A stretch of DNA of 64,000 nt from assembly GCF_044324875.1 (NCBI RefSeq), contig NZ_CP172185.1; one strand, written 5' to 3'. Below are positions 20,109 to 58,099 of the stretch, piece after piece (position 1 is the stretch's first letter; every line of letters begins with the position of its first letter). This stretch comes from Escherichia coli. GTDB lineage: Bacteria; Pseudomonadota; Gammaproteobacteria; Enterobacterales; Enterobacteriaceae. The notes below the pieces were generated by a model, which did not search any database, was not told where the DNA came from, and was given only the letters and a program-made list of their open reading frames with translations. The translations under genes and the position numbers were made by a program.

Positions 20109-20200
20109 ATAATTGCAATCAAAAATCAATAATTTAAATACTTATCAATCACTTAAGAACACATTAAAATACAAGCAACCACGCAAAACGACGTGAATGT

Positions 20201-20631: not shown

Positions 20632-21595
20632 TTGGATTAAACCTCACCGCATCCTGCAAATAATCCGGTGCAAGATGGGCATAAATCATCGTTGTCTGAA
20701 TCTTTGCGTGCCCCAGAATTTTCTGGAGCGTCAGAATATTGCCGCCGTTCATCATGAAATGACTGGCGAAAGTGTGGCGCAGCGCGTGAACGGCCTGCCC
20801 GTCAGGAATGGAAGGGGCAACCGCTTTTATCGAATCGCGCACCAGTGAATAATCCAGCGCCGGAAATACCAGCTTTCCGCCCCGTTTTTTAATTTTGTCA
20901 AACAGGCTTTCAGAAATTGGAACAGTCCGGTTTTTACTGTTTTTGGTTCTGGAAAATGTGATCCGGGAATGCAGAACGCGGCGCTGTTCAAGTGCCACCA
21001 CCTCACCCCATCGCGCCCCGGTAGATAAAAGAATTTCAGTAGCTAGCCGTTCGTCGGGATGCTCTACCAGAACGTCAAGCAGCTGGAGGCACTCCTGCCT
21101 GTTCAGATACCCCATTTCGCGCTCGCTGACCTTCATCCCTTTCAGTCCGCTAACAGGGTTATCATTCTGGAAGTGACCGGATGAGATGAGTGCGGAAAAC
21201 ATCGCGCTAAGCGCACCAACCTCGCGGTTTATGGTACTTGGCTGAATCCCCTCCTCCGCTCTTGCCACGCGTAATTCCGTTAACGTGGTGGCGTTGACGT
21301 TGTTAACACGCGGATCCCCCATCGCTTCACACACGCGCTGTAATTTGAGGCGTGTGTTCCACCCCGATTTCATCAGTTGCCCGTGAAACTTCCACCATAA
21401 TTCGATAAGTTCGGACAACGAACGGCGATCGGTCGGCGCACTGTTCCATGCGTTATTTTGGTGTTGAGCTAAAACCCAGCGTTCGAACTGGATAGCCTCC
21501 GACTTTGTTTTGAACTTTTTACGAATGCGTTTACCTTTGCGCCCATCAGGACGCATATCAACCATGTAGCCACCAGGGATTGATTTTATGCTCAT
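20594..21595 (-). CDS. int: tyrosine-type site-specific integrase (P2 Int-like)
   Basis: Translation MSIKSIPGGYMVDMRPDGRKGKR...; C-terminal ...HALRHTFASHFMMNGGNILTLQKILGH...YAHL catalytic region; start chosen at ATG 21595 inside longer ORF. Confidence 0.9.
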   Translation of the reverse strand: MSIKSIPGGYMVDMRPDGRKGKRIRKKFKTKSEAIQFERWVLAQHQNNAWNSAPTDRRSLSELIELWWKFHGQLMKSGWNTRLKLQRVCEAMGDPRVNNVNATTLTELRVARAEEGIQPSTINREVGALSAMFSALISSGHFQNDNPVSGLKGMKVSEREMGYLNRQECLQLLDVLVEHPDERLATEILLSTGARWGEVVALEQRRVLHSRITFSRTKNSKNRTVPISESLFDKIKKRGGKLVFPALDYSLVRDSIKAVAPSIPDGQAVHALRHTFASHFMMNGGNILTLQKILGHAKIQTTMIYAHLAPDYLQDAVRFNPIAEEGGCCEKNS

Positions 21596-21644
21596 TGGCA
21601 TACCCCCAGCGTCACAAGCCCACCGTGCCCCCAGCGTTCCATAA

Positions 21645-21953
21645 TCAGCCGTGCAGTGTGCCAGTCTTGCGGACTTTTTGAGAAGGTGATGTGCTTTCTG
21701 GCCCATCAGGGGAGAGAGTCGGGCTGATCTGCCCAGCAGCCTCGTTTGTTTTTCCCGTCATGAGCCAATTCATGTACTTAAAAAAACGAGGATGATTAAC
21801 AATCTTGACGAGAGCTTCGCCGCCGACATTCTCAATCCGACCTGTCTCATAACGGCGTAGAGTACCGATAGGTACATCAATCAGTTCACAAAACTCTTCA
21901 CGCGTTAACCCTTCCGACTCACGAATTACTCTGATTTTTTCACCAATAAACAT
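21645..21953 (-). CDS. immunity repressor (P2 C-like HTH protein)
   Basis: 102-aa HTH protein upstream of int and divergent from early operon; recalled resemblance to P2 C. Confidence 0.7.
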   Translation of the reverse strand: MFIGEKIRVIRESEGLTREEFCELIDVPIGTLRRYETGRIENVGGEALVKIVNHPRFFKYMNWLMTGKTNEAAGQISPTLSPDGPESTSPSQKVRKTGTLHG

Positions 21954-21992
21954 TGACAGTGTTCCTATCAGTACAGTATTCTTGATTTCAAG

Positions 21993-22010
21993 GTGTACTT
22001 ATAAGTACAC
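21993..22010. promoter_or_regulatory. perfect 18-bp palindrome GTGTACTTATAAGTACAC in the repressor/early divergent intergenic region (putative operator)
   Basis: Seen in sequence; flanked by a second inverted repeat gtattcttg...caagaatac. Confidence 0.5.
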
Positions 22011-22050
22011 AAGAATACAAATAGCCACAGACTGGAAAGGTTACCACATC

Positions 22051-22329
22051 ATGACAAAAGTCTTGAACACATACGGGGAGACGGACTTCAACAAGCTGGC
22101 GGCAATGTACCCCTACCGTGATGAGCATGGACTGCCAGTTCTTGAGGAAAGCCTTGAGGACTACGCCAAACGAACCAATCAAGCCCTGAACACTGTTAAA
22201 AAACAGGTCGACAGAGCGCAGATCCCTATAAATCAGCATAAAAAAGGCGGGAAACGCACAGTAAATCTCTACGCAATTTTTCTGAAAACCATCATAAACG
22301 CAGAGAAATATGTACTCATGACGAAATAA
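22051..22329 (+). CDS. first early gene, Cox/Apl-position small protein (function uncertain)
   Basis: 92-aa ORF from ATG 22051 divergent from repressor; positional analogy only, no recognised similarity to P2 Cox. Confidence 0.4.
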   Translation: MTKVLNTYGETDFNKLAAMYPYRDEHGLPVLEESLEDYAKRTNQALNTVKKQVDRAQIPINQHKKGGKRTVNLYAIFLKTIINAEKYVLMTK

Positions 22330-22359
22330 CTATTTTCCGCAAATAACGAGGGCAACAAC

Positions 22360-37215: not shown

Positions 37216-37998
37216 ATGCTGACACCGGCACAGGCTCATTTCCAGCGCGTGATGGCTTTACGGGCAGGAACGGCAGCAGAAAACGAGGATATCGTGGCCC
37301 GCACGGCTCATGAGCAGGTCCTTCACCGTCTGCGCCTGGCACAGCAACGCATAAAGGGCGTCCAGGCAAAAGCGGCAAAGGCCGCGCTCAAGCGTGAAAT
37401 GCTGCCGGGTTTTGCAGGCTGGATAGACGGCACGCTGGAAGCCGACGGCGGACAGCAGGATGAGGTGATAGCCACACTCATGGTGTGGGCCGTGGACTGT
37501 GGCGACCTGGCGCTTGCACTGCGCATCGGGGATTATGTGGTTCGCCACAACCTCACGATGCCTGACAACTTCGGGCGTACGGCAGCCACGGTACTGACCG
37601 AGGAAATCTGCAACCCTGTTCTGACACAGGCCGGAACGGATGCACACGCCGATTTGTCCGGCTACATCGAACCGCTGGACACCCTCTGGCAAATTGTCGC
37701 GAACCGGGACATGCCCGATGAGGTCCGCGCCAAGCTGTGCAAGGCATGCGCCTTTGCCCGTCGTGGCCTGACCGATGCCGACAGCATGGCGGTGAGTCTG
37801 AAGCTGTTCCGTGAGGCAATGCACCTTAACCCGAATGCGGGGGTAAAACGTGAGATTGCCACGCTTTCACGGGCCCTGAAAAAGGCCGGACAGGATGAAG
37901 CCGCTGCCGCACAGGAGCCTGCGGCACAGAAAGATACAACCAGAGAACAGACCACGACGCCGAAGGCGAAAGCGAAAGCGAAGGCGAAACGTGGTTAA
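37216..37998 (+). CDS. terminase endonuclease/small subunit (P2 gpM-like)
   Basis: 260-aa ORF with C-terminal KAKAKAKAK tail; P2 order. Confidence 0.8.
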   Translation: MLTPAQAHFQRVMALRAGTAAENEDIVARTAHEQVLHRLRLAQQRIKGVQAKAAKAALKREMLPGFAGWIDGTLEADGGQQDEVIATLMVWAVDCGDLALALRIGDYVVRHNLTMPDNFGRTAATVLTEEICNPVLTQAGTDAHADLSGYIEPLDTLWQIVANRDMPDEVRAKLCKACAFARRGLTDADSMAVSLKLFREAMHLNPNAGVKREIATLSRALKKAGQDEAAAAQEPAAQKDTTREQTTTPKAKAKAKAKRG

Positions 37999-38100
37999 CG
38001 GCTGACCCCGTCAGAAGGCGGCGTGCCGGGCGTTCCGGTTACGGTTTTCCGTTCCCCTTACACCCGGCACCCACCGCTTTTTTTTCTGAAGGAGCGATTT

Positions 38101-38595
38101 ATGAGCATGGTCGCAAGACCGGAAGCCGCCCCTGCGCGGGACGACATCACCGACACCGACGACGGCGACGCCACCATCACCGCCGGGGCATTCTGGCCGG
38201 AGATTGTGCTGCGGGAGCTGCGCCTTGCAGTACGCCTGCCGGGCCGCATCACCTCCACACGTCTGGCGCACGTTGCCACGGGAGCCGTGGCTCACGTCAC
38301 GCGGGAGCTGGAAGAGTGGCAGCAGGCGCAAATCGCCGCAGGATTCAGCACGCTGACAGACGTACCTGCCGCCACCATCAACGGTGAGAGCGTCAACGCC
38401 TGGCATTACCGGCACGCCGTCTACAGCGCCACCCGTGCCCTGATTCTGGAACGCTGGCGGGATGTGGACACCACCGACAAGGGGGACCGCAGGGCTGACG
38501 CACTGGATGAGCAGGTGGAGGACCTGTGGCGCGACGTGCGCTGGGCGATTTCCGATATTCTCGGCTTTCCCCGTCTTTTTGTGGAGCTTGTGTGA
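38101..38595 (+). CDS. head completion/stabilisation protein (P2 gpL-like)
   Basis: ATG 38101 with AAGGAG RBS; P2 order. Confidence 0.75.
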   Translation: MSMVARPEAAPARDDITDTDDGDATITAGAFWPEIVLRELRLAVRLPGRITSTRLAHVATGAVAHVTRELEEWQQAQIAAGFSTLTDVPAATINGESVNAWHYRHAVYSATRALILERWRDVDTTDKGDRRADALDEQVEDLWRDVRWAISDILGFPRLFVELV

Positions 38596-38792
38596 TGAAA
38601 GTGAGGGCACTTCAGGGGGACACCGTCGATTTACTCTGTTTCCGGCACTACGGCACCACGCAGGGGGTGACCGCACAGGTACTTGATGCCAATCCCGGGC
38701 TCTGCCGCCAGGTAATTCTGGAAGCGGGACAGGAGGTGGAGATGCCGGAGCCGGAAAGGAAACAGCAACGCGAAAAGGTAAAGCTATGGTGA
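38595..38792 (+). CDS. tail protein X (P2 gpX-like)
   Basis: 65-aa MKVRALQGDTVDLLCFRHYG... recalled as gpX-like; ATGA overlap. Confidence 0.7.
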   Translation: MKVRALQGDTVDLLCFRHYGTTQGVTAQVLDANPGLCRQVILEAGQEVEMPEPERKQQREKVKLW

Positions 38793-39076
38793 CGGGATTT
38801 TTTCAGCGCGTCAGTGACTGGATCACCTTCTGGGCGTCAGTGACGGCAACAACCATTGGTGTTATGACCATCAGCGAAAAAATTGCGCTGGCCGGGCTGC
38901 TTCTGGGGTCACTTTCCGCCATCCATGCCTGGCGCCACCGCAGGCGTACGGAGCAGGCAATGAAGCGCCGCAATGACCTTATCGCCCGCATCCTGGCACG
39001 TTCAGAAAACCGCGAGCTTCACGACGGTGAGAGACGGGCACTGGACAGCGTGAGACAGGACGGAGAAGAGCGGTGA
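38786..39076 (+). CDS. holin
   Basis: 96-aa ORF with two hydrophobic segments and charged C-terminus directly upstream of endolysin. Confidence 0.6.
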   Translation: MVTGFFQRVSDWITFWASVTATTIGVMTISEKIALAGLLLGSLSAIHAWRHRRRTEQAMKRRNDLIARILARSENRELHDGERRALDSVRQDGEER

Positions 39077-39618
39077 AACTGCCGGTAAAACGTTATGCGG
39101 TGGCGGCCATTGTGGCGCTGGGCGTCTCCATGGCACCCGGTGAACTGAGAACCTCACGGGAAGCACAGATAAAAATCGCCACCCGGGAAGAGTGCCGGGC
39201 GACACCGTACCGTGATATTGCAGGAGTAATGACCGTGGGATGTGGTTCAACAGGGGGCGTGGAGAACCGGGTTTACGGAGAAAAGGAGGTGGCCCGCCGC
39301 TGGGTGAATGACCTGCGGCACGCGGAAAACTGTATCAACCAGAACTTCAGCGGTGCCGCCATGCCCCAGTCCGCCTTTGAGGCGATGACCGACGCGGCGT
39401 TCAACGTCGGCTGTACCGGCCTGATGTGGTACCGGGACAGGAGCGGCAACCGGCAGCGCACCACCATCTGGAAGCACGCACAGGCGCACCGCTGGGTGGC
39501 GATGTGCGGGAGACTGACCGATTTTGTCAACAGTGGCGGACGCCGCTCACAGGGGCTGGTTAACCGCCGGGAGGAGTTCAGACAGTGGTGTCTTCGCGAC
39601 ACGGGAGGCAGCACATGA
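39073..39618 (+). CDS. SAR-type endolysin (T4-lysozyme-like, GH24)
   Basis: N-terminal hydrophobic signal-anchor YAVAAIVALGVSMAPG then E...D...T region (TREECRATPYRDIAGVMTVGCG). Confidence 0.75.
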   Translation: MKLPVKRYAVAAIVALGVSMAPGELRTSREAQIKIATREECRATPYRDIAGVMTVGCGSTGGVENRVYGEKEVARRWVNDLRHAENCINQNFSGAAMPQSAFEAMTDAAFNVGCTGLMWYRDRSGNRQRTTIWKHAQAHRWVAMCGRLTDFVNSGGRRSQGLVNRREEFRQWCLRDTGGST

Positions 39619-40022
39619 GACCGGTTTACGCCGTGATTGTTGCCCTCATGGTGACCGCCCTGACGGCAGTGGCCATGTGGCAGTCATACCGGCTGGGGCG
39701 TGCCGGTGAGGCACGTGACGCCGCAGAGCAGCAGCTGGGCGAATACAGCCGGGCGCTGCGTGAGTCCTCCGCCGTTATCAGCGATGCCTCCGCCGTACTG
39801 CATGAGGTGATGACGCAGCGACAGAAAAGGGCACAGGAAGGAGAAGTCAGACGTGAACAGCTTCGCGAAATTGCTGCGACGGATGAGTGCGCCGGCACTC
39901 TTCCTGACCACCGTTTTACTGACCGGCTGCGCGAACACACGGAACGCGCCACTGCCCGCGCCCTCCTTCCGGTTCATTCCGGCGGGACTGACGACGGGAA
40001 CACGGCCCCCGCCCTTCCCTGA
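39615..40022 (+). CDS. i-spanin (Rz/LysB-like)
   Basis: N-terminal TM (VYAVIVALMVTALTAVAMW) followed by charged helical region. Confidence 0.55.
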   Translation: MRPVYAVIVALMVTALTAVAMWQSYRLGRAGEARDAAEQQLGEYSRALRESSAVISDASAVLHEVMTQRQKRAQEGEVRREQLREIAATDECAGTLPDHRFTDRLREHTERATARALLPVHSGGTDDGNTAPALP

Positions 40023-40167
40023 ACACCCCACATGGGGAAATATCGGGATATGGAGCGACAGCCTCCTGGATGCACTGGAAACCTGCAACGCAGACAAACA
40101 GGCCATTGAGGCGCTGGAGCGCCGGAGACTCAACCGACAGAACGGAGGGGGACATGCTGAAAAGTAA
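39883..40167 (+). CDS. o-spanin lipoprotein (Rz1/LysC-like), overlapping i-spanin in another frame
   Basis: Lipobox LFLTTVLLTGC, Pro-rich; embedded in spanin gene. Confidence 0.5.
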   Translation: MSAPALFLTTVLLTGCANTRNAPLPAPSFRFIPAGLTTGTRPPPFPEHPTWGNIGIWSDSLLDALETCNADKQAIEALERRRLNRQNGGGHAEK

Positions 40168-40618
40168 ATCCCTGAGCACACACATGAGTACAGCGTGCCG
40201 GTGGTGCAGGGCCAACCCGGAAAAGTTCACCGTGTTCATTGAACGTGGCGGGATAGAGACCACCGGCGAGACGCCGACGTTCGTGTACAACTACCGGCTC
40301 GTGATGTTCGTCATGGACTACACGGGCGACCTGGACGACCTGACGCTTCCACTGATTGTCTGGCTGGCAGAGAACCAGCCGCAGTTGCTGCTTAATCCTG
40401 AGCGCAACGGCGATATTCAGTTCACGGCGGCCATTAACGACGACGACAGTGCGGACGTGCTTTTTGAGCTGCCGCTGCGCGAGCGCGTGCGCGTCACCCG
40501 CAGGGATGACGGCACCCTCACAACGGAACATCTGCCGGAGCCGAAATCGCGCATCCCGCAGGACGGCGACTGGTCGCACATTCTGGAGGATGTGACGTGG
40601 GAGGTGACCGGTGACTGA
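40154..40618 (+). CDS. tail completion protein (P2 gpR-like)
   Basis: ATG 40154 (MLKSKSL...); P2 order. Confidence 0.7.
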   Translation: MLKSKSLSTHMSTACRWCRANPEKFTVFIERGGIETTGETPTFVYNYRLVMFVMDYTGDLDDLTLPLIVWLAENQPQLLLNPERNGDIQFTAAINDDDSADVLFELPLRERVRVTRRDDGTLTTEHLPEPKSRIPQDGDWSHILEDVTWEVTGD

Positions 40619-41252
40619 CAGGGCTTTCACTGAACTGGACCGCACAATGCGGACCATCAGCAGCGGACTTTCCCCGCAGGCACTGAGCCGCATTGCCGGA
40701 CAGCTTGCCAGAGAGGTTCGCCGCAGCCAGCAACAGCGTATGCGCGCACAGAAAGCGCCGGACGGTACACAGTGGGAGCCGCGCAGACGGCGCATCAGCC
40801 GCCTGCAGCAGCGTATCCGCTTCATCCGGAACAACGAAACCCGCACGCTGAAAAACTGGCATCACGACGTGAGCAGACACGGACGCACCATCACCGGCTG
40901 GGATGAGGATAAGGGAGGCCTGCGCACCTTCTACCGGGAGGATATCACCCGTTATATTGAAATCAGCACCCGCCGCATCAGCCGCAACGCCACAAAGACC
41001 GTACCGATGTTTGCGAAGCTGCGCACGGCACGCTACCTGAAAGCCAGAGGCGATGCGGGCGGTCTGACCGTCGGTTATGACGGCGTGGCGGCACGCATTG
41101 CCCGCGTTCACCAGTTCGGGGAGCGCGACCGGGTGGCCGCAGGGGTGTATACGGATTATCCGGCCCGTGAACTTCTTGGAATAACACCGGCAGATGAACG
41201 GCTGATTGCCGACAGGCTACTGAACCGCATTGCGGGAGAAATATCATCATGA
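40611..41252 (+). CDS. virion morphogenesis/tail completion protein (gpS position)
   Basis: 213-aa ORF overlapping neighbours; positional. Confidence 0.6.
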   Translation: MTDRAFTELDRTMRTISSGLSPQALSRIAGQLAREVRRSQQQRMRAQKAPDGTQWEPRRRRISRLQQRIRFIRNNETRTLKNWHHDVSRHGRTITGWDEDKGGLRTFYREDITRYIEISTRRISRNATKTVPMFAKLRTARYLKARGDAGGLTVGYDGVAARIARVHQFGERDRVAAGVYTDYPARELLGITPADERLIADRLLNRIAGEISS

Positions 41253-41830
41253 ACGCGGAGCTTATGCGCCTTATCAGCAACATTATCAGAACCGGCGTGA
41301 TTTTCGACGTGAACCCGCAGACCTGGGAGGTCCGGGTGCGCAGTGGCGGACTGGAGACAGGCTGGCTTCGCTGGAGCACCGCGCGGGCGGGCGCGTTCAG
41401 TGTCTGGGTGCCGCCAGCCACCGGTGAACAGGTGGCGTTCGTCTGTATCGGTGGTAATCCCGAAACCGCGATAATCATCGGCAGCCTCTGGAGCGATGAT
41501 ATCCCGGCACCGGGCAGCACACTGAAGGAAATCATCATGACAGCACCGGACGGTGCGGTATTCCGCTACGATGCAGACGCCGGTGCACTGGAGGTTAAGG
41601 GGATTAAAACAGCCAGCATTCAGGCCGACACGCGCATCACCCTGGACACGCCGGAGGTGGTGTGTACCCGCAAACTTATCACCGCCACCCTGGAGGTGCA
41701 GAACGGCGGCGAGATGCGCGGCAGCATATCCCACAGCGGCGGCAGCCTGACATCCAACGGTATCACCGTTCATACGCACACCCACGGTGGCGTCAGGACG
41801 GGCCCGGGCACCACGGGAGGCCCGCAATGA
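41249..41830 (+). CDS. baseplate assembly protein V (spike)
   Basis: 193-aa ORF; P2 order. Confidence 0.8.
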   Translation: MNAELMRLISNIIRTGVIFDVNPQTWEVRVRSGGLETGWLRWSTARAGAFSVWVPPATGEQVAFVCIGGNPETAIIIGSLWSDDIPAPGSTLKEIIMTAPDGAVFRYDADAGALEVKGIKTASIQADTRITLDTPEVVCTRKLITATLEVQNGGEMRGSISHSGGSLTSNGITVHTHTHGGVRTGPGTTGGPQ

Positions 41831-42177
41831 CCGCTGTTTACAGGGGGATGAACCCGCAGGGAACCGGCACGCTGAGCGACAGCGAACACCTGAAAAACAG
41901 CGTGCGGGATATCCTGACCACACCGCCAGGCAGCCGGGTGATGCGCCGCGAATACGGCAGCCTGTTACCGGACCTCATCGACGAGCCCATGAACGACACC
42001 ACGCGTTTACAGTGCATGAGCGCCACGGTGACTGCGCTGGCGCGCCATGAACCCCGTATAGCACTGCAGAACGTCGATGTGAACTGGCGGGCTGGCGGAC
42101 GCGCCGTGGTGACGTTATCCGGCATCATCACCGAAACCATGCAGAACATCACATTCAGTATCACCCTGAGGGAGTAA
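41827..42177 (+). CDS. baseplate protein W (GPW/gp25 family)
   Basis: ATG 41827 overlapping V stop; 116 aa. Confidence 0.8.
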   Translation: MTAVYRGMNPQGTGTLSDSEHLKNSVRDILTTPPGSRVMRREYGSLLPDLIDEPMNDTTRLQCMSATVTALARHEPRIALQNVDVNWRAGGRAVVTLSGIITETMQNITFSITLRE

Positions 42178-42180
42178 ATC

Positions 42181-43077
42181 ATGCCTTCCGTTGACCTGTC
42201 ACAGTTACCGGAACCGGCCATCATCGCGCAGCCGGATTTTGAGTCCATCCTGGCAGACATTAAAACCATGATGGTGAGCTCCTTCCCGGAAGAATACCGC
42301 GCCGCCGTCACCCGTGCCCTTACTCTGGAATCCGAGCCATTGAACATCATTTCCCAGGCCATGGCCTTTCGTGAAATGCTGCTTCGCCAGCGCATCAATG
42401 AAGCCGCCCGCGCCTGCATGCTCAGCCACAGCCGGGGCAGTGACCTGGACAATCTGGCCGCCAACAACAACACCCGCCGCCTGGTCATTCATCCGGCCAC
42501 TGATACCACGGAAGCAGTGATGGAAAGCGACACATCGCTGCGTCTGCGTGCCCAGTCAGCCTGGGACGGCCTGAGTGTGGCCGGACCGTCCGGCGCGTAT
42601 GAGTATTTTGCCCGGAGCGCAAGCGGTCTTGTCCGTGATGCGCGCGCCATCAGCCCGTCACCGGCCACAGTCACCGTCTCCATCCTGTCAGCAGACGGTG
42701 ACGGCACCGCCGGTGAGGCGTTACTGAACACGGTGCGCACCGCCCTGAATGCCGAGAACGTGCGCCCGGTTGCCGACCGCCTGACTGTGCAGAGTGCTAC
42801 CATCGTGAACTGGGTAATGGAAGCGAAGCTGTATTTTTATCCAGGGCCGGAGTCTGAACCCATGCTTGCGGCCGCTGACGCCGCTTTCCGTGCATGGCTG
42901 GCAGACCAGGGCCGTATCGGTCAGGACGTGGCCCTGTCAGCCATCACTGCAGCGCTGCATGTTCACGGTGTCCAGCGCGTTGAGGTCATAAAACCCACGC
43001 AGAACATCACCATCAGTGACACTCAGGCAGCCAGATGTACCACATTCAGCATCAGCGAAGGAGGACGCAATGAGTGA
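42181..43077 (+). CDS. baseplate protein J
   Basis: 298-aa ORF; P2 order. Confidence 0.85.
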   Translation: MPSVDLSQLPEPAIIAQPDFESILADIKTMMVSSFPEEYRAAVTRALTLESEPLNIISQAMAFREMLLRQRINEAARACMLSHSRGSDLDNLAANNNTRRLVIHPATDTTEAVMESDTSLRLRAQSAWDGLSVAGPSGAYEYFARSASGLVRDARAISPSPATVTVSILSADGDGTAGEALLNTVRTALNAENVRPVADRLTVQSATIVNWVMEAKLYFYPGPESEPMLAAADAAFRAWLADQGRIGQDVALSAITAALHVHGVQRVEVIKPTQNITISDTQAARCTTFSISEGGRNE

Positions 43078-43798
43078 CAGGAAAAAAACAGACAGCGCAC
43101 AGCACAGTACATCACTGCTTCCACCGTCCGCAGGGCCATTCATGCGCGCCACAGAGGCGACAGGAGTACGCATCAGTGCCATACCGGTGGACGCCGACAC
43201 CCTGTGGTCGCCGGACCGCTGCCCTGCTCACCTCCTGCCCTACCTTGCATGGGCATGTTCCGTTGACCGCTGGGACCGCAACTGGCCGGAAGAGACCAGA
43301 CGACAGGTGATTGGCCAGTCCTGGAAGGTACACCGCCAGAAAGGAACGGTCAGCGCACTGAGGGAAACAGCCGCAGCATTCGGTTATGAGATGACCATCA
43401 GTGAATGGTGGGAGCATGGAGGGCAGCCGGGCACCTTTACTGTGACCATCGGGGCAGACACTCAGGGCATCGGCCCTGAAACATGGCTGGAGATGGAGGA
43501 TCTGCTCAATGATGCACGTCCGGTTTCACGTCATATGACGGGGCTTTATGCCGCCCTGCGTTCTGGCGTGACGGTTTACTGCGCTGCGGGAGCAGGCTGT
43601 GATGAGCTTGTAACCATTCACCAGAAAGCTCGCGCCTCCCTGGCGGGCCAGGTGACCATCATCGCAGCAGGAGACACACACACAACCGACAGTGTGACCG
43701 TACTGCCGGGGGTTCCGTCAGGTATGTACGGGGAGATCTGTATCCGTACCGGCGCAGGTATATTCGTGAGTGAGATTGTGGAGGTTATCACCTTATGA
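43070..43798 (+). CDS. baseplate/tail protein I
   Basis: ATG 43070 with GAAGGAGG RBS, overlapping J stop. Confidence 0.75.
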   Translation: MSDRKKTDSAQHSTSLLPPSAGPFMRATEATGVRISAIPVDADTLWSPDRCPAHLLPYLAWACSVDRWDRNWPEETRRQVIGQSWKVHRQKGTVSALRETAAAFGYEMTISEWWEHGGQPGTFTVTIGADTQGIGPETWLEMEDLLNDARPVSRHMTGLYAALRSGVTVYCAAGAGCDELVTIHQKARASLAGQVTIIAAGDTHTTDSVTVLPGVPSGMYGEICIRTGAGIFVSEIVEVITL

Positions 43799-44910
43799 AC
43801 ACCGATTTTTATTCCGTTCTGACGGATGCCGGGCTGAAAAAACTGGCGGCAGCCGCAGCATCAGGGAATCAGATGAAAATCACCCATATGGCTGTAGGCG
43901 ACGGAAACGGAAAAGCCGTAACACCCGGCAGGGCCGACACCAGGCTTGTCAGGGAAAAATACCGTGCGCCACTGAACAGTCTGGAAGAAGACACAGAGAG
44001 ACCGGGGCATGTTATCGCAGAAATGGTGATACCTGAAAAACAGGGAGGGTGGTGGATCAGAGAATTCGGATTATTCGACGAAGACGGCGGAATGATTGTT
44101 ACAGGCAAATTTCCTGACACATGGAAGCCTGCACCTGGTCAGGGTGGAGCACGACTGATATCAGTGAAAGTGGTTGTGGCAGTATCACATACAGAAAACA
44201 TTGTGCTGAAAGTGGATCCTTCTGTTGTCATGGCAACCCGGGAATGGGTGAACACAAAAGCAGAGCAGTTAAAGAAAGAGCTCAGACAACCTGATGCAAC
44301 CACCAAAACAAAAGGCATTGTTCAGCTTAGCAGTGACATCAACAGCACCTCTGAAACGCAGGCTGCCACCCCCGGAGCGGTAAAAGCCGTGAATGATCGT
44401 GTGGACGGAAAACAGGACGCGGATCCCACGCTCACATCTCTGTCCGGGAAAAATGCACAGCAACTGAGGCAGCTTCTGGGGCTGGGCACGCTTGCCACCC
44501 TGAACAGGGGCACCGGTTCAGGGAATGTGCCGGACATGAGTCACTTTGCGAGTAAAAAAGCAGACTACGGTTACCAGTGTTTTCCTGGCGGCATAATGAT
44601 CCAGTGGCTGCGGATCCCCTCAGACCACACAGGAAGAGCTGTCAGTCAGGAAGCCCGGGTGGCACTAAGCGGCGTGCGACTGTTTTCAGTGGAGGGTAAC
44701 TGGAACGGTAATAACATGATTAAGACCCTGGCAAACTACCAGTGGCCGAGAGTTTTCGGGGCAATTTATGCGACCGTTGCAACCAGGAATCACGGATCTG
44801 CATGGCGAGTATATCCGGTGTCCGCGAACAAGGATGTGCGTGTCGTATCCATTGCCTGGGCGGGAGAAGGTACAGATGACACTTATGTGGTTGGGGTGGG
44901 AAGAGTATGA
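43795..44910 (+). CDS. tail fibre protein (gpH-like, short)
   Basis: 371-aa ORF after baseplate I; conserved N-terminal fibre anchor region then divergent C-terminus. Confidence 0.7.
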   Translation: MNTDFYSVLTDAGLKKLAAAAASGNQMKITHMAVGDGNGKAVTPGRADTRLVREKYRAPLNSLEEDTERPGHVIAEMVIPEKQGGWWIREFGLFDEDGGMIVTGKFPDTWKPAPGQGGARLISVKVVVAVSHTENIVLKVDPSVVMATREWVNTKAEQLKKELRQPDATTKTKGIVQLSSDINSTSETQAATPGAVKAVNDRVDGKQDADPTLTSLSGKNAQQLRQLLGLGTLATLNRGTGSGNVPDMSHFASKKADYGYQCFPGGIMIQWLRIPSDHTGRAVSQEARVALSGVRLFSVEGNWNGNNMIKTLANYQWPRVFGAIYATVATRNHGSAWRVYPVSANKDVRVVSIAWAGEGTDDTYVVGVGRV

Positions 44911-50477: not shown

Positions 50478-50805
50478 TAAGCACCTCCAAGCGTCGCAAA
50501 TGCAGGACCAAAGAATTCATCAGTAAACGTCTGGTAAAGTTCCATATCCTCAAGCGGCGGAACGGGCGTGTACTTGTAGCGGATACGCACGCGTCCCTGA
50601 CGAAGTTCCGTGGTGCTGTTATCCACCACGTCATACCAGCACTCCGCACCAACGAGACGTCCTGACGTAACCAGCGCATCCAGTTTTGCGCGAATTGCGC
50701 TTAACACGTCTTTCACATTAGCAGGGGTCAGCGGGGCATCAATCGTTTCAAACTGCGCTTCCGCAACAGAATCAGCCAGCACCTGATGCAAAATGGCATC
50801 TGAAT
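50477..50805 (-). pseudogene. tail sheath (FI) C-terminal fragment, separated from N-terminal part by an IS
   Basis: Frame ...AIDSDAILHQVLADSVAEAQF...RIRYKYTPVPPLEDMELYQTFTDEFFGPAFATLGGA ends where tube gene starts; 5' boundary approximate. Confidence 0.6.
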
Positions 50806-50988
50806 CGATCGCAGTTTGGCATTCGAATCGATCATGATTTGGCATCCATCTCCGATCACAGTTTGGCATCACAATCGATCACGATTTGGCATGCTTCCGA
50901 TCATTGATTGGCATCCTGCCAGTCACTCCGGGAATTAACTCTTTTCACCACAGTCTCCATTGCCGTGTTTAAACCAGTGGAGACGTCA

Positions 50989-52554
50989 ATGTCCAGAAAG
51001 AGAAAATCCAGGAGCACTATGGAAACCTGTTTTAAGATCCTTCAGCTCAAGTTCGACAAGAAGCTGACTAACCGTTGTATCGGACTGACGTTACACATCA
51101 GCGCCTCAACCGTTTTTGAGGTTCTTGCCCGCTTCAAAGCCTCTTCTCTGTCATGGCCATTACCTGCTGATATATCCCATGACACGCTGGAGAAACTCAT
51201 TTTTCCGCCCAAAGACACCTTTGCATCAGAGCTTGTAATGCCTGACATGTTGTACTTCGATACGGAAATGAGAAAACCAGGTGTGACGCGGCAACTGTTG
51301 TGGATGGAATACAAGGCACAGGCGGGTAACAAAGCGATGGGATACTCGCACTTCTGCCGTTGCTACCGGGAGTGGAAAAAAACGCGACGTCTCTCCATGC
51401 GCCAGGAGCATCGTGCCGGCGAAAAGCTTTTTATCGACTTCTGTGGTCCTACGGTTCCTGTTATTAATCCGGACACCGGTGAGATACGCCGCGTGGCAAT
51501 CTTCGTGGCCGTAATGGGGGCGTCCAACTATACCTACGTTGAAGCGTGCGAAGGTCAGGACATGATGTCATGGTTAAATGCCCACAGCCGTTGCCTGACC
51601 TTCCTGGGCGGCGTACCGAAGCTGCTCATCCCCGATAACCTCAGAAGCGCAGTGAAAAAGGCCGATCGATATGAGCCTGTCATCAACGACAGTTATCAGG
51701 CACTGGCTGAGCACTATGGCACGGTTATCATCCCGGCCCGACCACGCAAACCTAAAGATAAACCAAAAGCAGAAAACGGCGTCCTCATCGTTGAACGATG
51801 GCTTCTTGCCCGCATCCGTAATGAAACCTTCCACACGCTCAGGGCGCTGAATGCGCGCCTTAGGGAGTTACTGACAGACATGAATAACCGGCCAATGAAG
51901 GGGTACGGCAATCAAACCCGTGCAGAACGCTTCCGCATACTGGATGCGCCAGCACTCTCTCCGCTGCCTCTGGCACCTTATGAATACACGGAATACAAAG
52001 CTGTGAAGGTTGGCCCTGACTACCACGTTGAATATGCCCGTCACTGGTACTCCGTTCCACACGAACTGGTCGGTCAGCGTCTGTCACTGAAGGCGGGGCA
52101 GTCGGTGGTACAGCTCTGGCACAAGGGGCAGTGTGTGGCGCAACATCCGCGCAGCACACATGAATATAAACACACAACCAATCCGCTTCACATGCCAGAG
52201 CGCCACCGGCAGCACGGGACATGGACACCGGAACGCCTGATCGAGCAGGGAAAACGTACGGGCCCGTCCACAGGCCGGGTGGTTGAATCCATGCTGAAGG
52301 CAAAACCCCATCCGGAACTGGCTTATCGTGCAGTTCTGGGGCTGCTGGCACTTCAGAAAAAATACGGCCCGGAACGGCTGGAAAAGGCCTGTTACGTTGC
52401 CCTGCACTATAACGCCCCTGACAGACGCTTTATCGACAATCTGCTGCGTCACCATCGGGAGAACCTGGAGCTTCCATTATCCCGCCAGGGCGAACAACAT
52501 CCGGCATATGCTTCAGAGCATGAAAACCTGCGTGGTCCGGGCTACTACCACTGA
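50989..52554 (+). CDS. istA: IS21-family transposase IstA
   Basis: N-terminal HTH, DDE-type central region; start taken at MSRKRKSRS (ATG 50989). Confidence 0.85.
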   Translation: MSRKRKSRSTMETCFKILQLKFDKKLTNRCIGLTLHISASTVFEVLARFKASSLSWPLPADISHDTLEKLIFPPKDTFASELVMPDMLYFDTEMRKPGVTRQLLWMEYKAQAGNKAMGYSHFCRCYREWKKTRRLSMRQEHRAGEKLFIDFCGPTVPVINPDTGEIRRVAIFVAVMGASNYTYVEACEGQDMMSWLNAHSRCLTFLGGVPKLLIPDNLRSAVKKADRYEPVINDSYQALAEHYGTVIIPARPRKPKDKPKAENGVLIVERWLLARIRNETFHTLRALNARLRELLTDMNNRPMKGYGNQTRAERFRILDAPALSPLPLAPYEYTEYKAVKVGPDYHVEYARHWYSVPHELVGQRLSLKAGQSVVQLWHKGQCVAQHPRSTHEYKHTTNPLHMPERHRQHGTWTPERLIEQGKRTGPSTGRVVESMLKAKPHPELAYRAVLGLLALQKKYGPERLEKACYVALHYNAPDRRFIDNLLRHHRENLELPLSRQGEQHPAYASEHENLRGPGYYH

Positions 52555-52570
52555 CAGAAGGAACAACAGT

Positions 52571-53326
52571 ATGAGTGATAACCTGTTAAACAAACTGACC
52601 CAACTGAAACTCCCGGCGATGGCCGGGAGCCTGATACGGCAGCGGGAAACGCCTCAGACCTACGACGAACTGTCGTTCGAGGAAAGGCTGACGCTGCTGG
52701 TTGATGACGAGCTTCTGAGCAGGGAAAACAGCCGTGTGGCACGGTTGAGAAAAAATGCCGGCCTGAAATACCAGGCAACACCGGAAGGGCTGCGCTATCC
52801 GGCCTCAAGAGGTCTGCGGGCTGAACAGATGAGAGAACTGCTGAACGGCCACTACATAACCCACAGGAAAAACCTGCTGATAACCGGTCCGACAGGATGT
52901 GGCAAGAGCTGGATAGCCAATGCGCTGGGCGAACAGGCATGTCGACAGAAACACAGCGTCCGGTACTGTAGAACCGGGCGATTACTGGAACAACTGGCTC
53001 AGGGACGTGTTGATGGCAGCTGGCTGAAATATCTGAAACAGTTGCAAAAAATACAGGTTCTAATCCTGGACGATCTGGGGCTGGAACAGTTAAGTAACGC
53101 CCAGTGTAATGACCTTCTGGAGCTCATAGAGGATCGTTACGGACAAAGCAGCACGATAGTGGTAAGCCAGTTCCCGGTAGATAAATGGCATGGTCTGATG
53201 GAGAACCCAACAACAGCAGATGCCATCCTGGACAGACTGGTACATAACTCACACCGAGTGGTCCTTCAGGGAGAGTCACTGAGGAAAAATCCCCCGGTAG
53301 TGGAAAGCAGCGAAAAAACGCGTTAA
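52571..53326 (+). CDS. istB: IS21-family helper ATPase IstB
   Basis: Start MSDNLLNKLTQLKLP; Walker A GPTGCGKS, Walker B ILDDLG. Confidence 0.9.
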   Translation: MSDNLLNKLTQLKLPAMAGSLIRQRETPQTYDELSFEERLTLLVDDELLSRENSRVARLRKNAGLKYQATPEGLRYPASRGLRAEQMRELLNGHYITHRKNLLITGPTGCGKSWIANALGEQACRQKHSVRYCRTGRLLEQLAQGRVDGSWLKYLKQLQKIQVLILDDLGLEQLSNAQCNDLLELIEDRYGQSSTIVVSQFPVDKWHGLMENPTTADAILDRLVHNSHRVVLQGESLRKNPPVVESSEKTR

Positions 53327-53409
53327 AAAGCGGTAGAAAAAGTTAAGTTCCCGGTTGATCGAATGGATGCGAATCGCTGATCGGACTTCGATGCCAATCC
53401 GTGATCGAA

Positions 53410-54406
53410 TAGAGCGGAATACGCACACCTGAGCGGTTCGCGTGTACACCTCAAAGATATACGCCTTCGTTTCCGGCGTACGGTTGCCCCAGAAGCGGAA
53501 ACCGTTACGGCGAATGATGGTGGTGATTTCCTTGTTGTTGAGATTGTTGGCATCGCTGTCTTCGGACTGAAGGGACCAGAACACCGGGCTGGAAATACCC
53601 AGCACATTTCTTACCGGCACGTTGGACAGCGATTTATGCCAGCCCTGTTCGTGGTCAATACGTGCACGTAAACCGCAGGCGTACGCCGCAGCCGGGAAGA
53701 CCTCATTAGCGCCGGATTTCGGGTTATGGGCGATGAAGTCAGGCCAGAGCAGCATAAGTTCGCGCTCGTTAAATCTGGCGCGGTAGCTGATTGCATCAGC
53801 GGGCTTCTTGCAGTTGTGACAGCCCGCGTAGACAAATGCGCGAAGTTTTTCTGCAATTACACACAGGGATTTTGTGACAGCTTCAGTATCCAGTCCGGGC
53901 GCTGCGATGATGCGCGGACGGTAACCGATGGCATCATCCTGTTCAGCTATCAGAAGTGCATACATACCGGTATAATTACCGTCGCCATCCGTGCCACCAA
54001 TGACATACTGGTCCTGCGTTTTGTGTGGGTATACAGGATGTGCATCTTCAGACTCATCAATACCAAAAAATGCCCTGTCTTCAGGATCCAGATGACCGAA
54101 TGATGTAACTCCTGTATCCGGGGCGCCCTGAGAACTGGCATCAGGAACGCGCACCACAATCACCTTCGTGCTCACCTGGTCGGCGACAGCCTTAAGCGAT
54201 TTGTAAAGCGTCCCCTTTGTGCCGGCCTTACCCAGCACATCACTGACGCGGGTCAGCAGTGTGGGTTTGTTCAGCGGGAACAGAGTTTCATCCGCGTCAT
54301 CTGCCGTAGCCACAATACCAATAACACTGGAATCCACATCATTAATGGCGGTGGCAAGGCCGGTACTTTCCCTTACGCGCGCACCATGAAAGCGTGTTTC
54401 ACTCAT
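53410..54406 (-). pseudogene. tail sheath (FI) N-terminal fragment interrupted by IS
   Basis: Start MSETRFHGARV at ATG 54406; frame runs into IS right end where translation becomes IS-derived. Confidence 0.65.
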
Positions 54407-56783: not shown

Positions 56784-56968
56784 CACCTTCATGACACATA
56801 TTAAGCAGACCTGATTTTTCCATGAAAAATTCATGGTTGAGACAAAAGCACAAAAACAGTAGATTAACCACGGGTGCCTGCCACCTGACAACAGGAAGGG
56901 GTGTCCATTATCCATGATATACAAACGAAAAGTCTTGTCTTTTGCCCGCCGTTGCGCGGGCTTTTTTT
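56784..56968 (+). repeat. repeat unit 3 ending in intrinsic terminator, candidate small RNA
   Basis: As unit 2; terminator stem 56943-56960 + T8 overlaps hicB stop. Confidence 0.35.
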
Positions 56969-57366
56969 TATCCAAGAACCCTGTCTGCAGCAACACGCGC
57001 CAGAAATCCAGAGCGGCTACCGTATTCAGGATGAGACTCAACGAACTGATCAATGCGACGAATAAGCAGAGATGGCAGGGTAACATTGATTTTTTCCGAT
57101 TTCCCCATCAGGCGGGACACATCCACCTCAACGAGCGCCCACACTGCATCACTGTATTCAGGATCTGATTGCCATTCATCAAGATTTGTAGCGACAGGGA
57201 TAGACTCACCAGATTCAACCAGTAATTCTACGTGTGCCTCAATGGCTTCACGGGCACTGTCTACCGCATCCTGAAAACTATCACCGCCAGAAAAACAGCC
57301 GGGCAGATCTGGGACGCGAACACCAAAAGATGAATCCCCCCGGTCAATAGCGATTGCATATAACAT
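56968..57366 (-). CDS. hicB: HicB-family antitoxin
   Basis: MLYAIAIDRGDSSFGVRVPDLPGCFSGGDSFQDAVDSAREAIEAH... typical HicB N-domain; C-terminal RHH-like tail. Confidence 0.8.
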   Translation of the reverse strand: MLYAIAIDRGDSSFGVRVPDLPGCFSGGDSFQDAVDSAREAIEAHVELLVESGESIPVATNLDEWQSDPEYSDAVWALVEVDVSRLMGKSEKINVTLPSLLIRRIDQFVESHPEYGSRSGFLARVAADRVLG

Positions 57367-57388
57367 TGAGACCTCCAGAAGGTGGGGC

Positions 57389-57568
57389 TTACAGCCCCGC
57401 CTGTTTCTTAATACTTTTTAAAGTTGGTAAAGGTATATCTTTTTGAGGGTGTTTTACCGTTACCAGCCCCTTCTTTGTCGGATGTTTGAATTGATGATGA
57501 CTCCCCTTAACCCTAACAAGATACCATCCATCCGCCTCTATCATTGCTATTGCACTTTTGCTATCCAT
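57389..57568 (-). CDS. hicA: HicA-family toxin (59 aa; absent from ORF track)
   Basis: Manual translation of minus strand: MDSKSAIAMIEADGWYLVRVKGSHHQFKHPTKKGLVTVKHPQKDIPLPTLKSIKKQAGL; 20 bp upstream of hicB. Confidence 0.75.
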   Translation of the reverse strand: MDSKSAIAMIEADGWYLVRVKGSHHQFKHPTKKGLVTVKHPQKDIPLPTLKSIKKQAGL

Positions 57569-57722: not shown

Positions 57723-57760
57723 GAATTAATTTTTATTTATAAATCAATGCATTATACAAA

Positions 57761-57782
57761 GAAAAAAGGCCGCAGAGCGGCC
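57761..57782. repeat. attR core gaaaaaaggccgcagagcggcc (part of ihfA terminator hairpin)
   Basis: Identical to 20087-20108; followed by T-run, i.e. intact terminator after ihfA. Confidence 0.7.
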
Positions 57783-57799: not shown

Positions 57800-58099
57800 T
57801 TACTCGTCTTTGGGCGAAGCGTTTTCGACCCGGCTTTTTAACTTCTGCCCGGGTCTGAAGGTCACCACGCGCCGTGCTGTAATGGGAATATCCTCGCCCG
57901 TTTTCGGGTTACGTCCCGGGCGTTGATTCTTATCACGCAGATCGAAGTTACCAAAACCAGAGAGTTTCACCTGTTCGCCGTTTTCCAGAGCGCGACGGAT
58001 CTCTTCGAAAAACAGTTCAACCAGTTCTTTGGCATCCCGCTTGCTAAGCCCAAGCTTATCAAACAGATATTCTGACATTTCAGCTTTTGTAAGCGCCAT
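57800..58099 (-). CDS. ihfA: integration host factor alpha subunit
   Basis: 99-aa [57 protein letters not shown]... Confidence 0.95.

Follow-up and report, generated by a model that had tools for sequence, protein, structure and literature searches.

The locus raises two questions: whether the lysis genes of a P2-like prophage share the history of the structural genes between which they lie, and by which mechanism their products would open the cell. The cassette is found in a stretch of Escherichia coli DNA of 64,000 nt, referred to here as the window. The best explanation, held with a probability of about 0.85, is a lysis cassette of the P2 family that uses a SAR-type (signal-anchor-release) mechanism and in which holin, endolysin and the 5' part of Rz form an exchangeable unit.

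Prophage context and organization of the cassette

The cassette belongs to a P2-family (Peduoviridae) prophage that adjoins ihfA on the E. coli chromosome; of 5426 E. coli genomes, 5425 contain the host flank. The P2 gene order is kept (Q, P, O, N, M, L, X ... R, S, V, W, J, I); farther downstream come the tube and sheath genes, encoded on the other strand, and then D and ogr. Pfam matches for L, X and R support a P2-family backbone, the L, X, R, S and V proteins of P2 align end to end with their prophage counterparts at 32-48% identity, and the phages closest to the prophage are classified as Peduoviridae. Within the equivalent of the late O operon the order of genes is X, holin, endolysin, Rz/Rz1, R. 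The left flank is tail gene X (38595..38792, + strand; PF05489, E = 1.7e-20) and the right flank is tail completion gene R (40154..40618, + strand; PF06891, E = 4e-38), the latter being 35% identical to R of P2 and 71% identical to R of the UTI89-type prophage described below. The interval 39073-40167, to which the preliminary description had assigned the cassette, runs exactly from the GTG start of the endolysin to the stop of Rz1. When 38595-40618 was compared by megablast with 50,697 phage records, no match was obtained, and relatives of this segment were detected only at the protein level or by short-word blastn. Scanning of 37900-41500 gave no promoters, with no signal above shuffled sequences, and two terminator-like sites against 2.5 expected from shuffles; with no terminator signal above shuffles in this interval, no counterpart of the P2 lysC attenuator was found. 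The tail sheath gene of this prophage copy is interrupted by a 2.6-kb insertion of the IS21 family, for which reason the cassette may have ceased to serve a productive phage. The insert was also considered as a group II intron, which was rejected: Rfam was empty, and Pfam identified the encoded proteins as IS21-type IstA-like and IstB.

Endolysin

The endolysin (181 aa, GTG start; 39073..39618, + strand) is a GH24 lysozyme-type enzyme of the P1 Lyz family. Residues 39-167 match PF00959 (Phage_lysozyme) with 77.6 bits (E = 1.4e-21; curated cutoff 22.3 bits), and the protein matches phrog_7 with E = 9e-48; NCBIfam offered no useful family, the match to a GTA endolysin falling far below the cutoff. 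The GH24 catalytic motif E-x8-D/C-x5-T is present as E39-x8-D48-x5-T54. The triad, together with Cys41 and Cys57, occupies codons 39-57 (39187..39243, + strand) and was placed by alignment to P1 Lyz, in which E39, C41, D48 and T54 stand opposite E42, C44, C51 and T57. Both E39 and T54 are unchanged in all 43 homologues of the endolysin. The nearest solved relative is P1 Lyz (1XJT; phmmer, E = 6.9e-36), and the alignment between the two reaches into the N-terminal anchor. The AF2 model (pLDDT 91.5) gave a TM score of 0.89 and an rmsd of 1.9 Å to 1XJT, the active form of Lyz, compared with a TM score of only 0.58 to the inactive form 1XJU; the scores of 0.6-0.7 to R21, RrrD and P22 gp19 reflect a T4-lysozyme-like fold. 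A GH24-like catalytic region behind an N-terminal signal-anchor, likeness to the P1-type and lambdoid SAR endolysins and dissimilarity to P2 K had been proposed for this protein from the outset. All three hold: the catalytic region is that of PF00959, the anchor lies at residues 8-23 as counted from the GTG start, P1 Lyz is matched at E = 7e-36 and R21 and RrrD more weakly, and the comparison with P2 K suggested at the time gave no BLASTP match at E ≤ 10.

N-terminal anchor and start codon

Codons 8-23 (39094..39141, + strand) encode a putative SAR segment, YAVAAIVALGVSMAPG, recognised by hydropathy and in the model. It is uncharged and rich in Ala, Gly and Ser, with K2, K6 and R7 upstream. 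Its peak hydropathy is 1.91, weakly hydrophobic in comparison with 2.57 for the transmembrane domain (TMD) of Rz, and A, G, S or T occupies 8 of the 19 positions of the anchor region (residues 7-25). At only 16 residues the uncharged stretch is short for a TMD, and its length would also suit the h-region of a Sec signal. In the AF2 model residues 10-20 are helical with high confidence and packed as in 1XJT, so that the model as a whole adopts the SAR-packed conformation of active P1 Lyz. Hydropathy revealed no comparable N-terminal segment in P2 K or in the M15 enzyme of the UTI89-type prophage.

The anchor is present only if translation begins at GTG 39073. RefSeq/PGAP begins the identical gene at M20 (ATG 39130), which yields 163 aa without the anchor; were this model correct, the product would be a soluble cytoplasmic lysozyme in need of a large-hole holin. 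ATG is the commoner of the two start codons, and WP_202116435.1 is annotated by PGAP in this way in at least two genomes. However, 39130 is not preceded by a Shine-Dalgarno sequence, while GGAG lies 7 nt upstream of GTG 39073, the GTG overlaps the holin stop as GTGA, and the 19 codons upstream of M20 are conserved at the protein level in 43 homologues, which are about 180 aa long and mostly start with ATG. The same PGAP records also shorten lysC, begun there at ATT 39976, to a form without a lipobox, which is a known failure in the annotation of lysis genes (PMC6139136). A start at M20 is regarded as very improbable.

A further possibility is that the segment is a cleavable Sec signal peptide. 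The enzyme would then be soluble in the periplasm and restrained by membrane energisation, as is Lys44 of the Oenococcus phage fOg44. Endolysins with true signal peptides exist (PMC6116005), and the layout here is that of one: an n-region (MKLPVKR), a 13-residue h-region within an uncharged stretch of just 16 residues, and S19-M20-A21, which fits the -3/-1 rule. This sole AxA-like site is, however, directly followed by Pro22, which is invariant in the 43 homologues. Pro at +1 blocks signal peptidase I. The site itself is not kept in homologues (e.g., ...LWPQA), the anchor aligns to the uncleaved SAR domain of P1 Lyz, and the model packs it on the enzyme as in 1XJT. In relatives, moreover, a Cys of this segment co-varies with the active-site Cys; retention of the segment in the mature enzyme is the sole sensible reading of this covariation, which is seen in 28 close homologues. 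Cleavage is judged unlikely, and the N-terminal segment is taken as a putative uncleaved SAR anchor that would tether the endolysin to the membrane.

Cysteine pattern and regulation

The endolysin has Tyr8, Asp48 and no Cys within residues 1-24, and retains Cys41; the Cys that 28 of the 43 homologues carry in the anchor segment is absent. Position 57 follows the same division: Y8, D48 and C57 occur together in 15 of the 43, the other 28 have C8, C48 and I, M or L at 57, and no sequence shows a mixed state. The 15 close Y8/D48/C57 sequences are all nearest relatives of this endolysin, and the covariation among close homologues may for this reason represent a single ancestral event. When enzymes with a hydrophobic N-terminus and C41 were counted among 108 representatives, 43 had only the SAR Cys, four had only C57, one had neither and none had both (Fisher p = 2.6e-5, not corrected for phylogeny). 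The thiol switch of the P1 Lyz type requires one Cys in the SAR segment and a second at the catalytic position, the latter being caged by the Cys at Glu+2. With no SAR Cys and with Asp at position 48, the thiol-disulfide isomerisation of Lyz is impossible, and in its absence topology must be the sole means of control, as it is in R21. Judged by its residues at these positions, the endolysin is a Lyz homologue outside the thiol-switch regulatory subclass. Cys57 probably provides the conserved Cys41 with a fixed disulfide partner, as the co-occurrence of the two and the even number of cysteines suggest. A more far-reaching idea, tentative and rather doubtful, is that these enzymes form a regulatory subclass of the P1 Lyz family in which the thiol switch was dismantled and the orphaned Cys41 was pacified by a disulfide to the acquired Cys57. 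If true, they would be an intermediate, found in nature, between SAR endolysins caged by a disulfide (P1) and those controlled by topology alone (R21). The split between Cys8/Cys48 and Tyr8/Asp48/Cys57 provides a ready pair of close homologues for studying the evolution of SAR regulation.

Holin

The holin (96 aa; 38786..39076, + strand; phrog_1350, E = 7e-23) is of class II, with two TMDs at approximately residues 12-29 and 33-49, a three-residue loop (SEK) and a cytoplasmic C-terminus that is highly basic. The hydrophobicity of TMD1 is weak (peak 1.39; A, G, S or T at 8 of 15 positions), TMD2 peaks at 1.85, and residues A34, G37 and G41 of TMD2 are invariant in 12 holin homologues (AxxGxxxG motif). 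Profile searches matched no characterised pinholin family and NCBIfam had no useful family for the protein; the score against PF16080 (HP1 holin) was 22.5 bits, below the cutoff of 28.8, and neither P2 Y nor the UTI89-type holin showed any similarity to it. Its composition, topology and conserved AxxGxxxG motif make it a candidate pinholin. SAR endolysins can also function with large-hole holins, as in P1 (PMC6116005).

Spanins

The i-spanin (Rz/LysB-like, 135 aa; 39615..40022, + strand; phrog_214, E = 3.5e-26) has a single N-terminal TMD (residues 1-24, peak hydropathy 2.57) and one periplasmic Cys. It scored 16.4 bits against TIGR03495 (LysB), whose cutoff is 92.75, and is not the P2 LysB equivalog; BLASTP against P2 LysB gave no match, and the two proteins appear to be related only at the superfamily level. 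The o-spanin (Rz1/LysC; 39853..40167, + strand) is made as a precursor of 104 aa from a GTG start, with AAGGAG 9 nt upstream of it. Its signal sequence, MNSFAKLLRRMSAPALFLTTVLLTG, ends directly before the Cys of the lipobox (LLTG-C, with Ala at +2), and the mature part is rich in Pro. It matches PF23793 (LysC) with 50.4 bits (cutoff 27) and phrog_456, the Pfam family and PHROG to which P2 LysC also belongs, and is approximately 65-66% identical to the UTI89-type LysC; NCBIfam had no useful family for it. Lipobox and PF23793 match bear out the assignment of Rz1 as a lipoprotein in the preliminary description. The arrangement given there, with Rz1 embedded in Rz, would be that of lambda Rz/Rz1 and has to be corrected. 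Rz1 opens inside Rz at 39853 in the +1 frame, shares 170 nt with it, has its last 145 nt downstream of the Rz stop (40022) and terminates at 40167, 14 nt inside gene R, which is the 'overlapped' architecture as defined by Kongari et al. 2018 (PMC6139136). Neither spanin is foreign to the prophage: both are relatives of P2-type LysB/LysC in the overlapped layout of the P2 type.

Exchange of holin and endolysin

The nearest relative of the structural genes is a P2-like prophage of the UTI89 type, which is present in hundreds of E. coli genomes (example locus: CP062985, 923327-934783). Amino acid identities to it are 70% for O, 75% for N, 77% for each of M, L and X, 71% for R, 67% for S, 69% for V, 73-74% for W, 80% for J and 61% for I. 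The gene order is the same as here, and the C-terminal half of Rz also has its nearest relative there: residues 74-135 are 58% identical, compared with 25% for residues 1-73. Between these collinear flanks, the UTI89-type slot holds a holin of 107 aa and a soluble M15 metallopeptidase of 130 aa, neither of which resembles the pair found here. At the DNA level (blastn, word size 7), similarity to the UTI89 locus covers 37216-38775 at 74.2% and 39834-43360 at 71.1%, and none was found across 38776-39833. The exchanged unit is 1,058 bp long (38776..39833, + strand): it starts in the end of X, takes in the holin and endolysin genes and closes with the 5' 219 nt of Rz. The left breakpoint, 38775, lies 17 nt before the X stop, and the megablast match to hundreds of E. 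coli genomes ends at 38758-38763. The proposal of module exchange in the lysis region, made on comparison with P2, is supported by this relative, which provides the stronger test. Together the alignments suggest that holin, endolysin and the 5' half of Rz behave as one exchangeable unit, while the 3' half of Rz and Rz1 remain linked to the structural genes. In otherwise collinear P2-like genomes the slot is filled by at least three unrelated types of enzyme, namely a lambda-R-type transglycosylase in P2, an M15 peptidase in the UTI89-type prophage and the GH24 SAR lysozyme here.

Lysis genes evolve fast, and Rz is just 29-42% identical even between relatives that share the cassette, from which it might be argued that no exchange took place and that the holin and endolysin merely diverged so far from their P2 and UTI89-type counterparts that the kinship can no longer be seen. 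However, the occupants of the slot differ in enzyme family, in solved relatives and in Pfam and PHROG assignments, and similarity breaks off abruptly on either side, the flanking DNA being 71-74% identical. Divergence without exchange is given practically no weight. Fast divergence alone was likewise rejected as the cause of the dissimilarity to the lysis genes of P2 and the UTI89-type prophage, since the enzyme families differ.

The direction of the exchange is a more balanced matter. The cassette could be ancestral and vertically inherited, the UTI89-type lineage having swapped a SAR-type cassette for a holin and an M15 peptidase. Four other lineages of Peduoviridae carry a two-TMD holin and a SAR GH24 enzyme in the same slot: phiT5282H (Novemvirus), ST16-OXA48phi5.4 (Reipivirus), 3LV2017 (Reginaelenavirus) and the prophage of GCA_037956395. 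The holin is 51-58% and the endolysin 66-77% identical to those of three of the four, and 27% and 61% identical, respectively, to those of 3LV2017; these values are in line with the flanks (about 43-78%). On the other hand, import into this prophage from a donor like GCA_037956395 equally needs one event, and the endolysin is somewhat more similar to that prophage (77%) than are most of the flanks (53-78%), as would follow if its shared origin were more recent. Ancestry of the cassette is credited with slightly less than an even chance. Several genera of Peduoviridae have this type of cassette as standard, and the exchange is consequently neither recent nor unique.

Proposed course of lysis

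The order of steps follows the paradigms of P1 and phage 21. The class II holin (96 aa) would build up in the inner membrane, while the endolysin would be exported by Sec and remain tethered and inactive by virtue of its uncleaved, weakly hydrophobic N-terminal SAR segment. Triggering of the holin would collapse the membrane potential, upon which the SAR segment would leave the bilayer and pack on the catalytic domain. The GH24 site E39-D48-T54 would then cut the murein, and the complex of Rz (inner-membrane protein) and Rz1 (outer-membrane lipoprotein) would finally remove the outer membrane.

Annotation and significance

SAR endolysins are textbook knowledge. The cassette is of little consequence for genome biology, and its practical value lies in annotation, in the boundaries of the swap and in the Cys dichotomy. 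In the RefSeq annotation of the same cassette, the membrane-targeting signals are stripped from the endolysin and the o-spanin, and the holin is called a tail protein; anyone searching these records for lysis proteins would assign them to the wrong class. The swap is bounded by the end of X and a point just before the Rz1 start, so that holin and endolysin travel together and the C-terminus of Rz stays with Rz1; both pairings fit known functional partners (holin-endolysin and Rz-Rz1). The P2-like phages of Burkholderia have a holin, antiholin and endolysin that do not resemble those of P2, and two of these phages keep LysB/LysC (PMC3091744). Swapping of the lysis module in P2-like phages with retention of LysB/LysC has thus already been described, and the present cassette is a further example.

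Comparison with known systems

In P2, the genes Y-K-lysA-lysB-lysC occupy the same position between X and R, with collinear flanks (32-48% identity), and lysB/lysC show the same overlapped +1 layout with lysC ending inside R. P2 LysB is weakly related to Rz of this cassette, with which it shares phrog_214 (LysB at 2e-4). The holin and endolysin differ: P2 Y belongs to phrog_175/PF04550 and has three TMDs by hydropathy, a family unrelated to phrog_1350, while P2 K is a soluble, lambda-R-like enzyme without a Pfam hit and unrelated to the endolysin here. The solved relatives of P2 K are structures of lambda R itself (1AM7/3D3D, E = 4e-44) and do not overlap with the PDB relatives of the present enzyme, and the PHROGs differ as well (90 for P2 K, 7 here). 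P2 has lysA, which is absent from this cassette.

P1 Lyz, the prototype SAR endolysin (1XJT active, 1XJU inactive), belongs to the same GH24 family and is 45% identical over residues 9-174 (tblastn). Its anchor is similar in length and composition, and the cysteines equivalent to C44 and four others are conserved here. Lyz has C13 in the anchor, the catalytic C51 and Ile60, whereas the present endolysin has no anchor Cys, Asp48 and Cys57; in P1, lyz also lies apart from the holin genes, unlike the compact cassette described here. R21 of phage 21 shares with this endolysin the canonical E-x8-D-x5-T triad without a Cys in the SAR domain, although the sequence similarity is distant (E = 1e-4, TM about 0.65). 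The S21 pinholin has two TMDs with a weakly hydrophobic TMD1, as does the holin here, and in both phages the holin is followed by the endolysin and then by the spanins.

Enterobacter phage phiT5282H and Klebsiella phage ST16-OXA48phi5.4 have the same order of genes as this prophage (X, holin, endolysin, Rz(/Rz1), R, S, V), also without lysA. Identities to phiT5282H and ST16-OXA48phi5.4 are 52% and 51% for the holin and 69% and 66% for the endolysin. Their Rz proteins are 29-32% identical and most structural genes 48-72%, so that in spanins and in most structural genes both phages are more distant than the UTI89-type prophage, and their endolysins are of the P1-type Cys variant (C8, C48, I57).

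Gene content of the lysis cassette

The lysis cassette of the P2-family (Peduoviridae) prophage adjoining ihfA consists of tightly coupled open reading frames on the + strand, located as in a P2-like late operon between the head-completion gene L (PF05926, 3e-48 in the profile search) and the tail genes R and S. Gene X (38595-38792; PF05489, 2e-20) is followed by a 96-aa membrane protein identified as the holin (38786-39076; phrog_1350, 7e-23; PF16080, the HP1 holin family, at 22.5 bits, under the cutoff of 28.8) and by a 181-aa endolysin with a GTG start (39073-39618; PF00959, 1.4e-21; phrog_7, 9e-48). The i-spanin Rz (135 aa, 39615-40022; phrog_214, 3.5e-26), the o-spanin Rz1 (104 aa in the +1 frame, 39853-40167; PF23793 LysC, 2e-13; phrog_456, 2e-16) and R (40154-40618; PF06891, 4e-38) complete the series. 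Adjacent genes share 1 to 14 nt, except for the nested Rz/Rz1 pair. The span 39073-40167, described in the preliminary description as a mosaic lysis cassette, covers exactly the endolysin gene and the two spanin genes. The adjoining host DNA (btuCED, ihfA, pheST) is that of E. coli and is present in 5425 of 5426 complete genomes; the cassette is present in 28 of the 5426.

Module exchange in the lysis region

The nearest relative of the structural genes is the P2-like prophage of many E. coli genomes exemplified by UTI89, which has the same gene order and carries in the lysis slot a 107-aa holin and a soluble metallopeptidase of family M15. Amino acid identity to this UTI89-type prophage is 70% for O, 75% for N and 77% each for M, L and X on one side, and 71% for R, 67% for S, 69% for V, 73-74% for W, 80% for J and 61% for I on the other. 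Rz is 42% and Rz1 65-66% identical; holin and endolysin have no amino acid similarity to the proteins in the same slot. In a 9-kb megablast search against E. coli genomes, the match found in hundreds comprised gpM, L and X only (~75%) and ended at 38758-38763. Sensitive blastn aligned 37216-38775 (74.2%) and 39834-43360 (71.1%) with the UTI89-type prophage and nothing between 38775 and 39834. The right-hand joint, at 39834, falls within Rz and precedes the Rz1 start by 19 nt; identity in Rz is 25% over residues 1-73 and 58% over residues 74-135. The cassette is phylogenetically incongruent with its flanks, and the module exchange suspected at first reading is borne out by an unrelated holin and endolysin set with sharp breakpoints between flanks of 61-80% identity. 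Holin and endolysin were exchanged as a unit together with the 5' half of Rz (transmembrane domain and first helix), the C-terminal half of Rz staying linked to Rz1. The closest relatives of holin and endolysin are in a different P2-like prophage of E. coli (58% and 77%), followed by phage phiT5282H (52% and 69%); the structural genes of both are more distant, apart from M and X in the E. coli prophage. Since the signal-anchor-release (SAR) type of cassette is carried by several lineages, the UTI89-type lineage may instead have been the recipient of the exchange.

Endolysin

The best solved relative of the endolysin is P1 Lyz (1XJT, E=6.9e-36), aligned over residues 12-175 and thereby into the N-terminal anchor; R21, RrrD and Acinetobacter muramidases are weaker matches (about 1e-4 to 1e-5). 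The AF2 model (43 homologues, pLDDT 91.5) superimposes on active full-length Lyz 1XJT with a TM of 0.89 and an rmsd of 1.9 Å, on inactive Lyz 1XJU with a TM of only 0.58, and contains a confident helix at residues 10-20. The catalytic residues follow the pattern E39-x8-D48-x5-T54. At the N-terminus, MKLPVKR precedes YAVAAIVALGVSMAPG, an uncharged, Ala/Gly/Ser-rich segment with a peak hydropathy of 1.91, well under that of the Rz transmembrane domain (2.57); by hydropathy, no hydrophobic segment was found in P2 K or the UTI89-type M15 enzyme. The anchor depends on translation from GTG 39073, a start supported by GGAG 7 nt 5' of it, by its GTGA overlap with the holin stop, and by conservation of the N-terminal extension in the protein sequences of ~180-aa homologues. 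The RefSeq annotation (PGAP) of an identical gene starts at M20, with loss of the anchor (39073-39129); no Shine-Dalgarno motif was found before M20.

A cleavable signal in place of a retained SAR anchor would have a single AxA-like site, S19-M20-A21, and is quite improbable. Proline at +1 blocks signal peptidase I, and Pro22, directly after this site, is invariant in 43/43 homologues. Moreover, the site is not kept among the relatives, and co-variation of the anchor Cys with the active-site Cys is sensible only with the anchor retained.

The 43 close homologues occur in two cysteine states only, with no mixed states. An anchor Cys with Cys41, Cys48 and Ile/Met/Leu57 is found in 28, including both closest phages (phiT5282H and ST16-OXA48phi5.4), and is the counterpart of C13/C44/C51 in P1 Lyz. 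The other state, Tyr8 with Cys41, Asp48 and Cys57, is found in 15/43, among them the window endolysin, which has six cysteines, not seven. With Tyr8 and Asp48, the window enzyme cannot use the disulfide-isomerisation switch of P1 Lyz; Cys57 would be a permanent partner for Cys41. The sites of the two-state pattern are codon 8 and window 39187-39243 (codons 39-57). A wider survey drew 108 representatives out of a search of 1.84 billion sequences and counted the sequences in which a hydrophobic N-terminus and Cys41 occur together: 43 had the anchor Cys without Cys57, 4 had Cys57 without the anchor Cys, none had both, and 1, its start probably miscalled, had neither (Fisher p=2.6e-5 for the exclusion, uncorrected for phylogeny). 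The 15 close homologues may represent one single event, since they are the nearest relatives of the window sequence.

Holin and spanins

The holin has two hydrophobic segments with a conserved SEK turn between them and a strongly basic tail after, which implies a predicted N-in/C-in, class II topology. The first segment is weak (peak hydropathy 1.39, half Ala/Gly/Ser/Thr), and A34, G37 and G41 are invariant in the second. Only 16 phage-collection records match the family at E<=1e-3; all 16 also match the endolysin (66-69% identity), and the holin is directly upstream of the endolysin in both annotated genomes among them. A more distant holin (27% identical) has the same position in 3LV2017. 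The protein fits a pinholin, but its pairing with a SAR endolysin is no proof: in P1, the partner of the SAR endolysin is a large-hole holin (PMC6116005). In a 99%-identical cassette of other E. coli genomes, PGAP names the holin (38786-39076) 'phage tail protein'.

The start codon of Rz1 is GTG 39853, preceded at 9 nt by AAGGAG, and the gene product has a signal with the lipobox LLTG|C and a Pro-rich mature part. In the +1 frame, the gene has 170 nt in common with Rz and continues for 145 nt beyond the stop codon of Rz; its end lies within R. Kongari et al. defined the overlapped architecture with P2 as type example, and the embedded one as the lambda type (PMC6139136); given the 145 nt past the Rz stop, 'overlapping' in the heading of the preliminary description stands and 'embedded' in its text does not. 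PGAP starts lysC of the 99%-identical cassette at ATT (39976), 3' of signal and lipobox, with loss of 39853-39975.

Prophage ends and insertions

A perfect 25-bp direct repeat, AAAGAAAAAAGGCCGCAGAGCGGCC, at 20084-20108 and 57758-57782 brackets an element of ~37.7 kb close to the 3' end of ihfA (57800-58099, minus strand); the repeats are probably attL and attR. HicA toxin (PF07927, 8e-22) and HicB antitoxin (PF15919, 9e-46) genes (56968-57568, minus strand) are located in a low-GC stretch (44%) at the right end, between ogr and the right-hand repeat; the alignment with the near-identical prophage of CM148325 ends at 56969. An IS21-family element (50787-53425; IstA-like ORF 50908-52554, IstB 52328-53326), with CACCTGA on its flanks, splits the tail sheath gene; the CM148325 prophage, 98.8-99.6% identical in other respects, lacks this element. 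The window copy is probably tail-defective. The late region (22339-50786) has a 98.8% identical counterpart in other E. coli strains, in a prophage that lies between glsA and copA. At the integrase end (20000-22338) these strains carry different DNA that does not align, and their chromosomal insertion site is another one, which suggests an exchange of the integration module too. GC content is 59-62% in the late genes (38000-44000), ~50% in the host flanks and 47-58% in the early region, a difference that would be consistent with descent from, or exchange with, phages whose host has a higher GC content.

Comparison with P2 and other phages

Over their full lengths, L, X, R, S and V are 32-48% identical to their P2 counterparts. 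The endolysin had been described as different from P2 K, and this holds clearly: neither it nor the holin had any similarity to the P2 counterparts, even at E=10. P2 K is lambda-R-like (1AM7, 4e-44) and without a Pfam match, P2 Y belongs to PF04550, and P2 lysA has no counterpart in the cassette. The o-spanin has Pfam and PHROG families in common with P2 LysC; the i-spanin is only remotely similar to LysB. P2 is too distant for judging module exchange. The window type of cassette is found in classified Peduoviridae genera, and GH24 relatives of the endolysin also occur in P2-like phages from Mannheimia, Pasteurella, Vibrio and Yersinia. In the Burkholderia phages of P2 type studied by Lynch et al. 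2010 (PMC3091744), holins, antiholins and endolysins do not resemble those of P2; LysB/LysC similar to the P2 proteins are retained in two of these phages, and in a third the lysis module was proposed to have been acquired horizontally. The lysis-cassette exchange is real but ordinary, and of a kind already known in P2-like phages.
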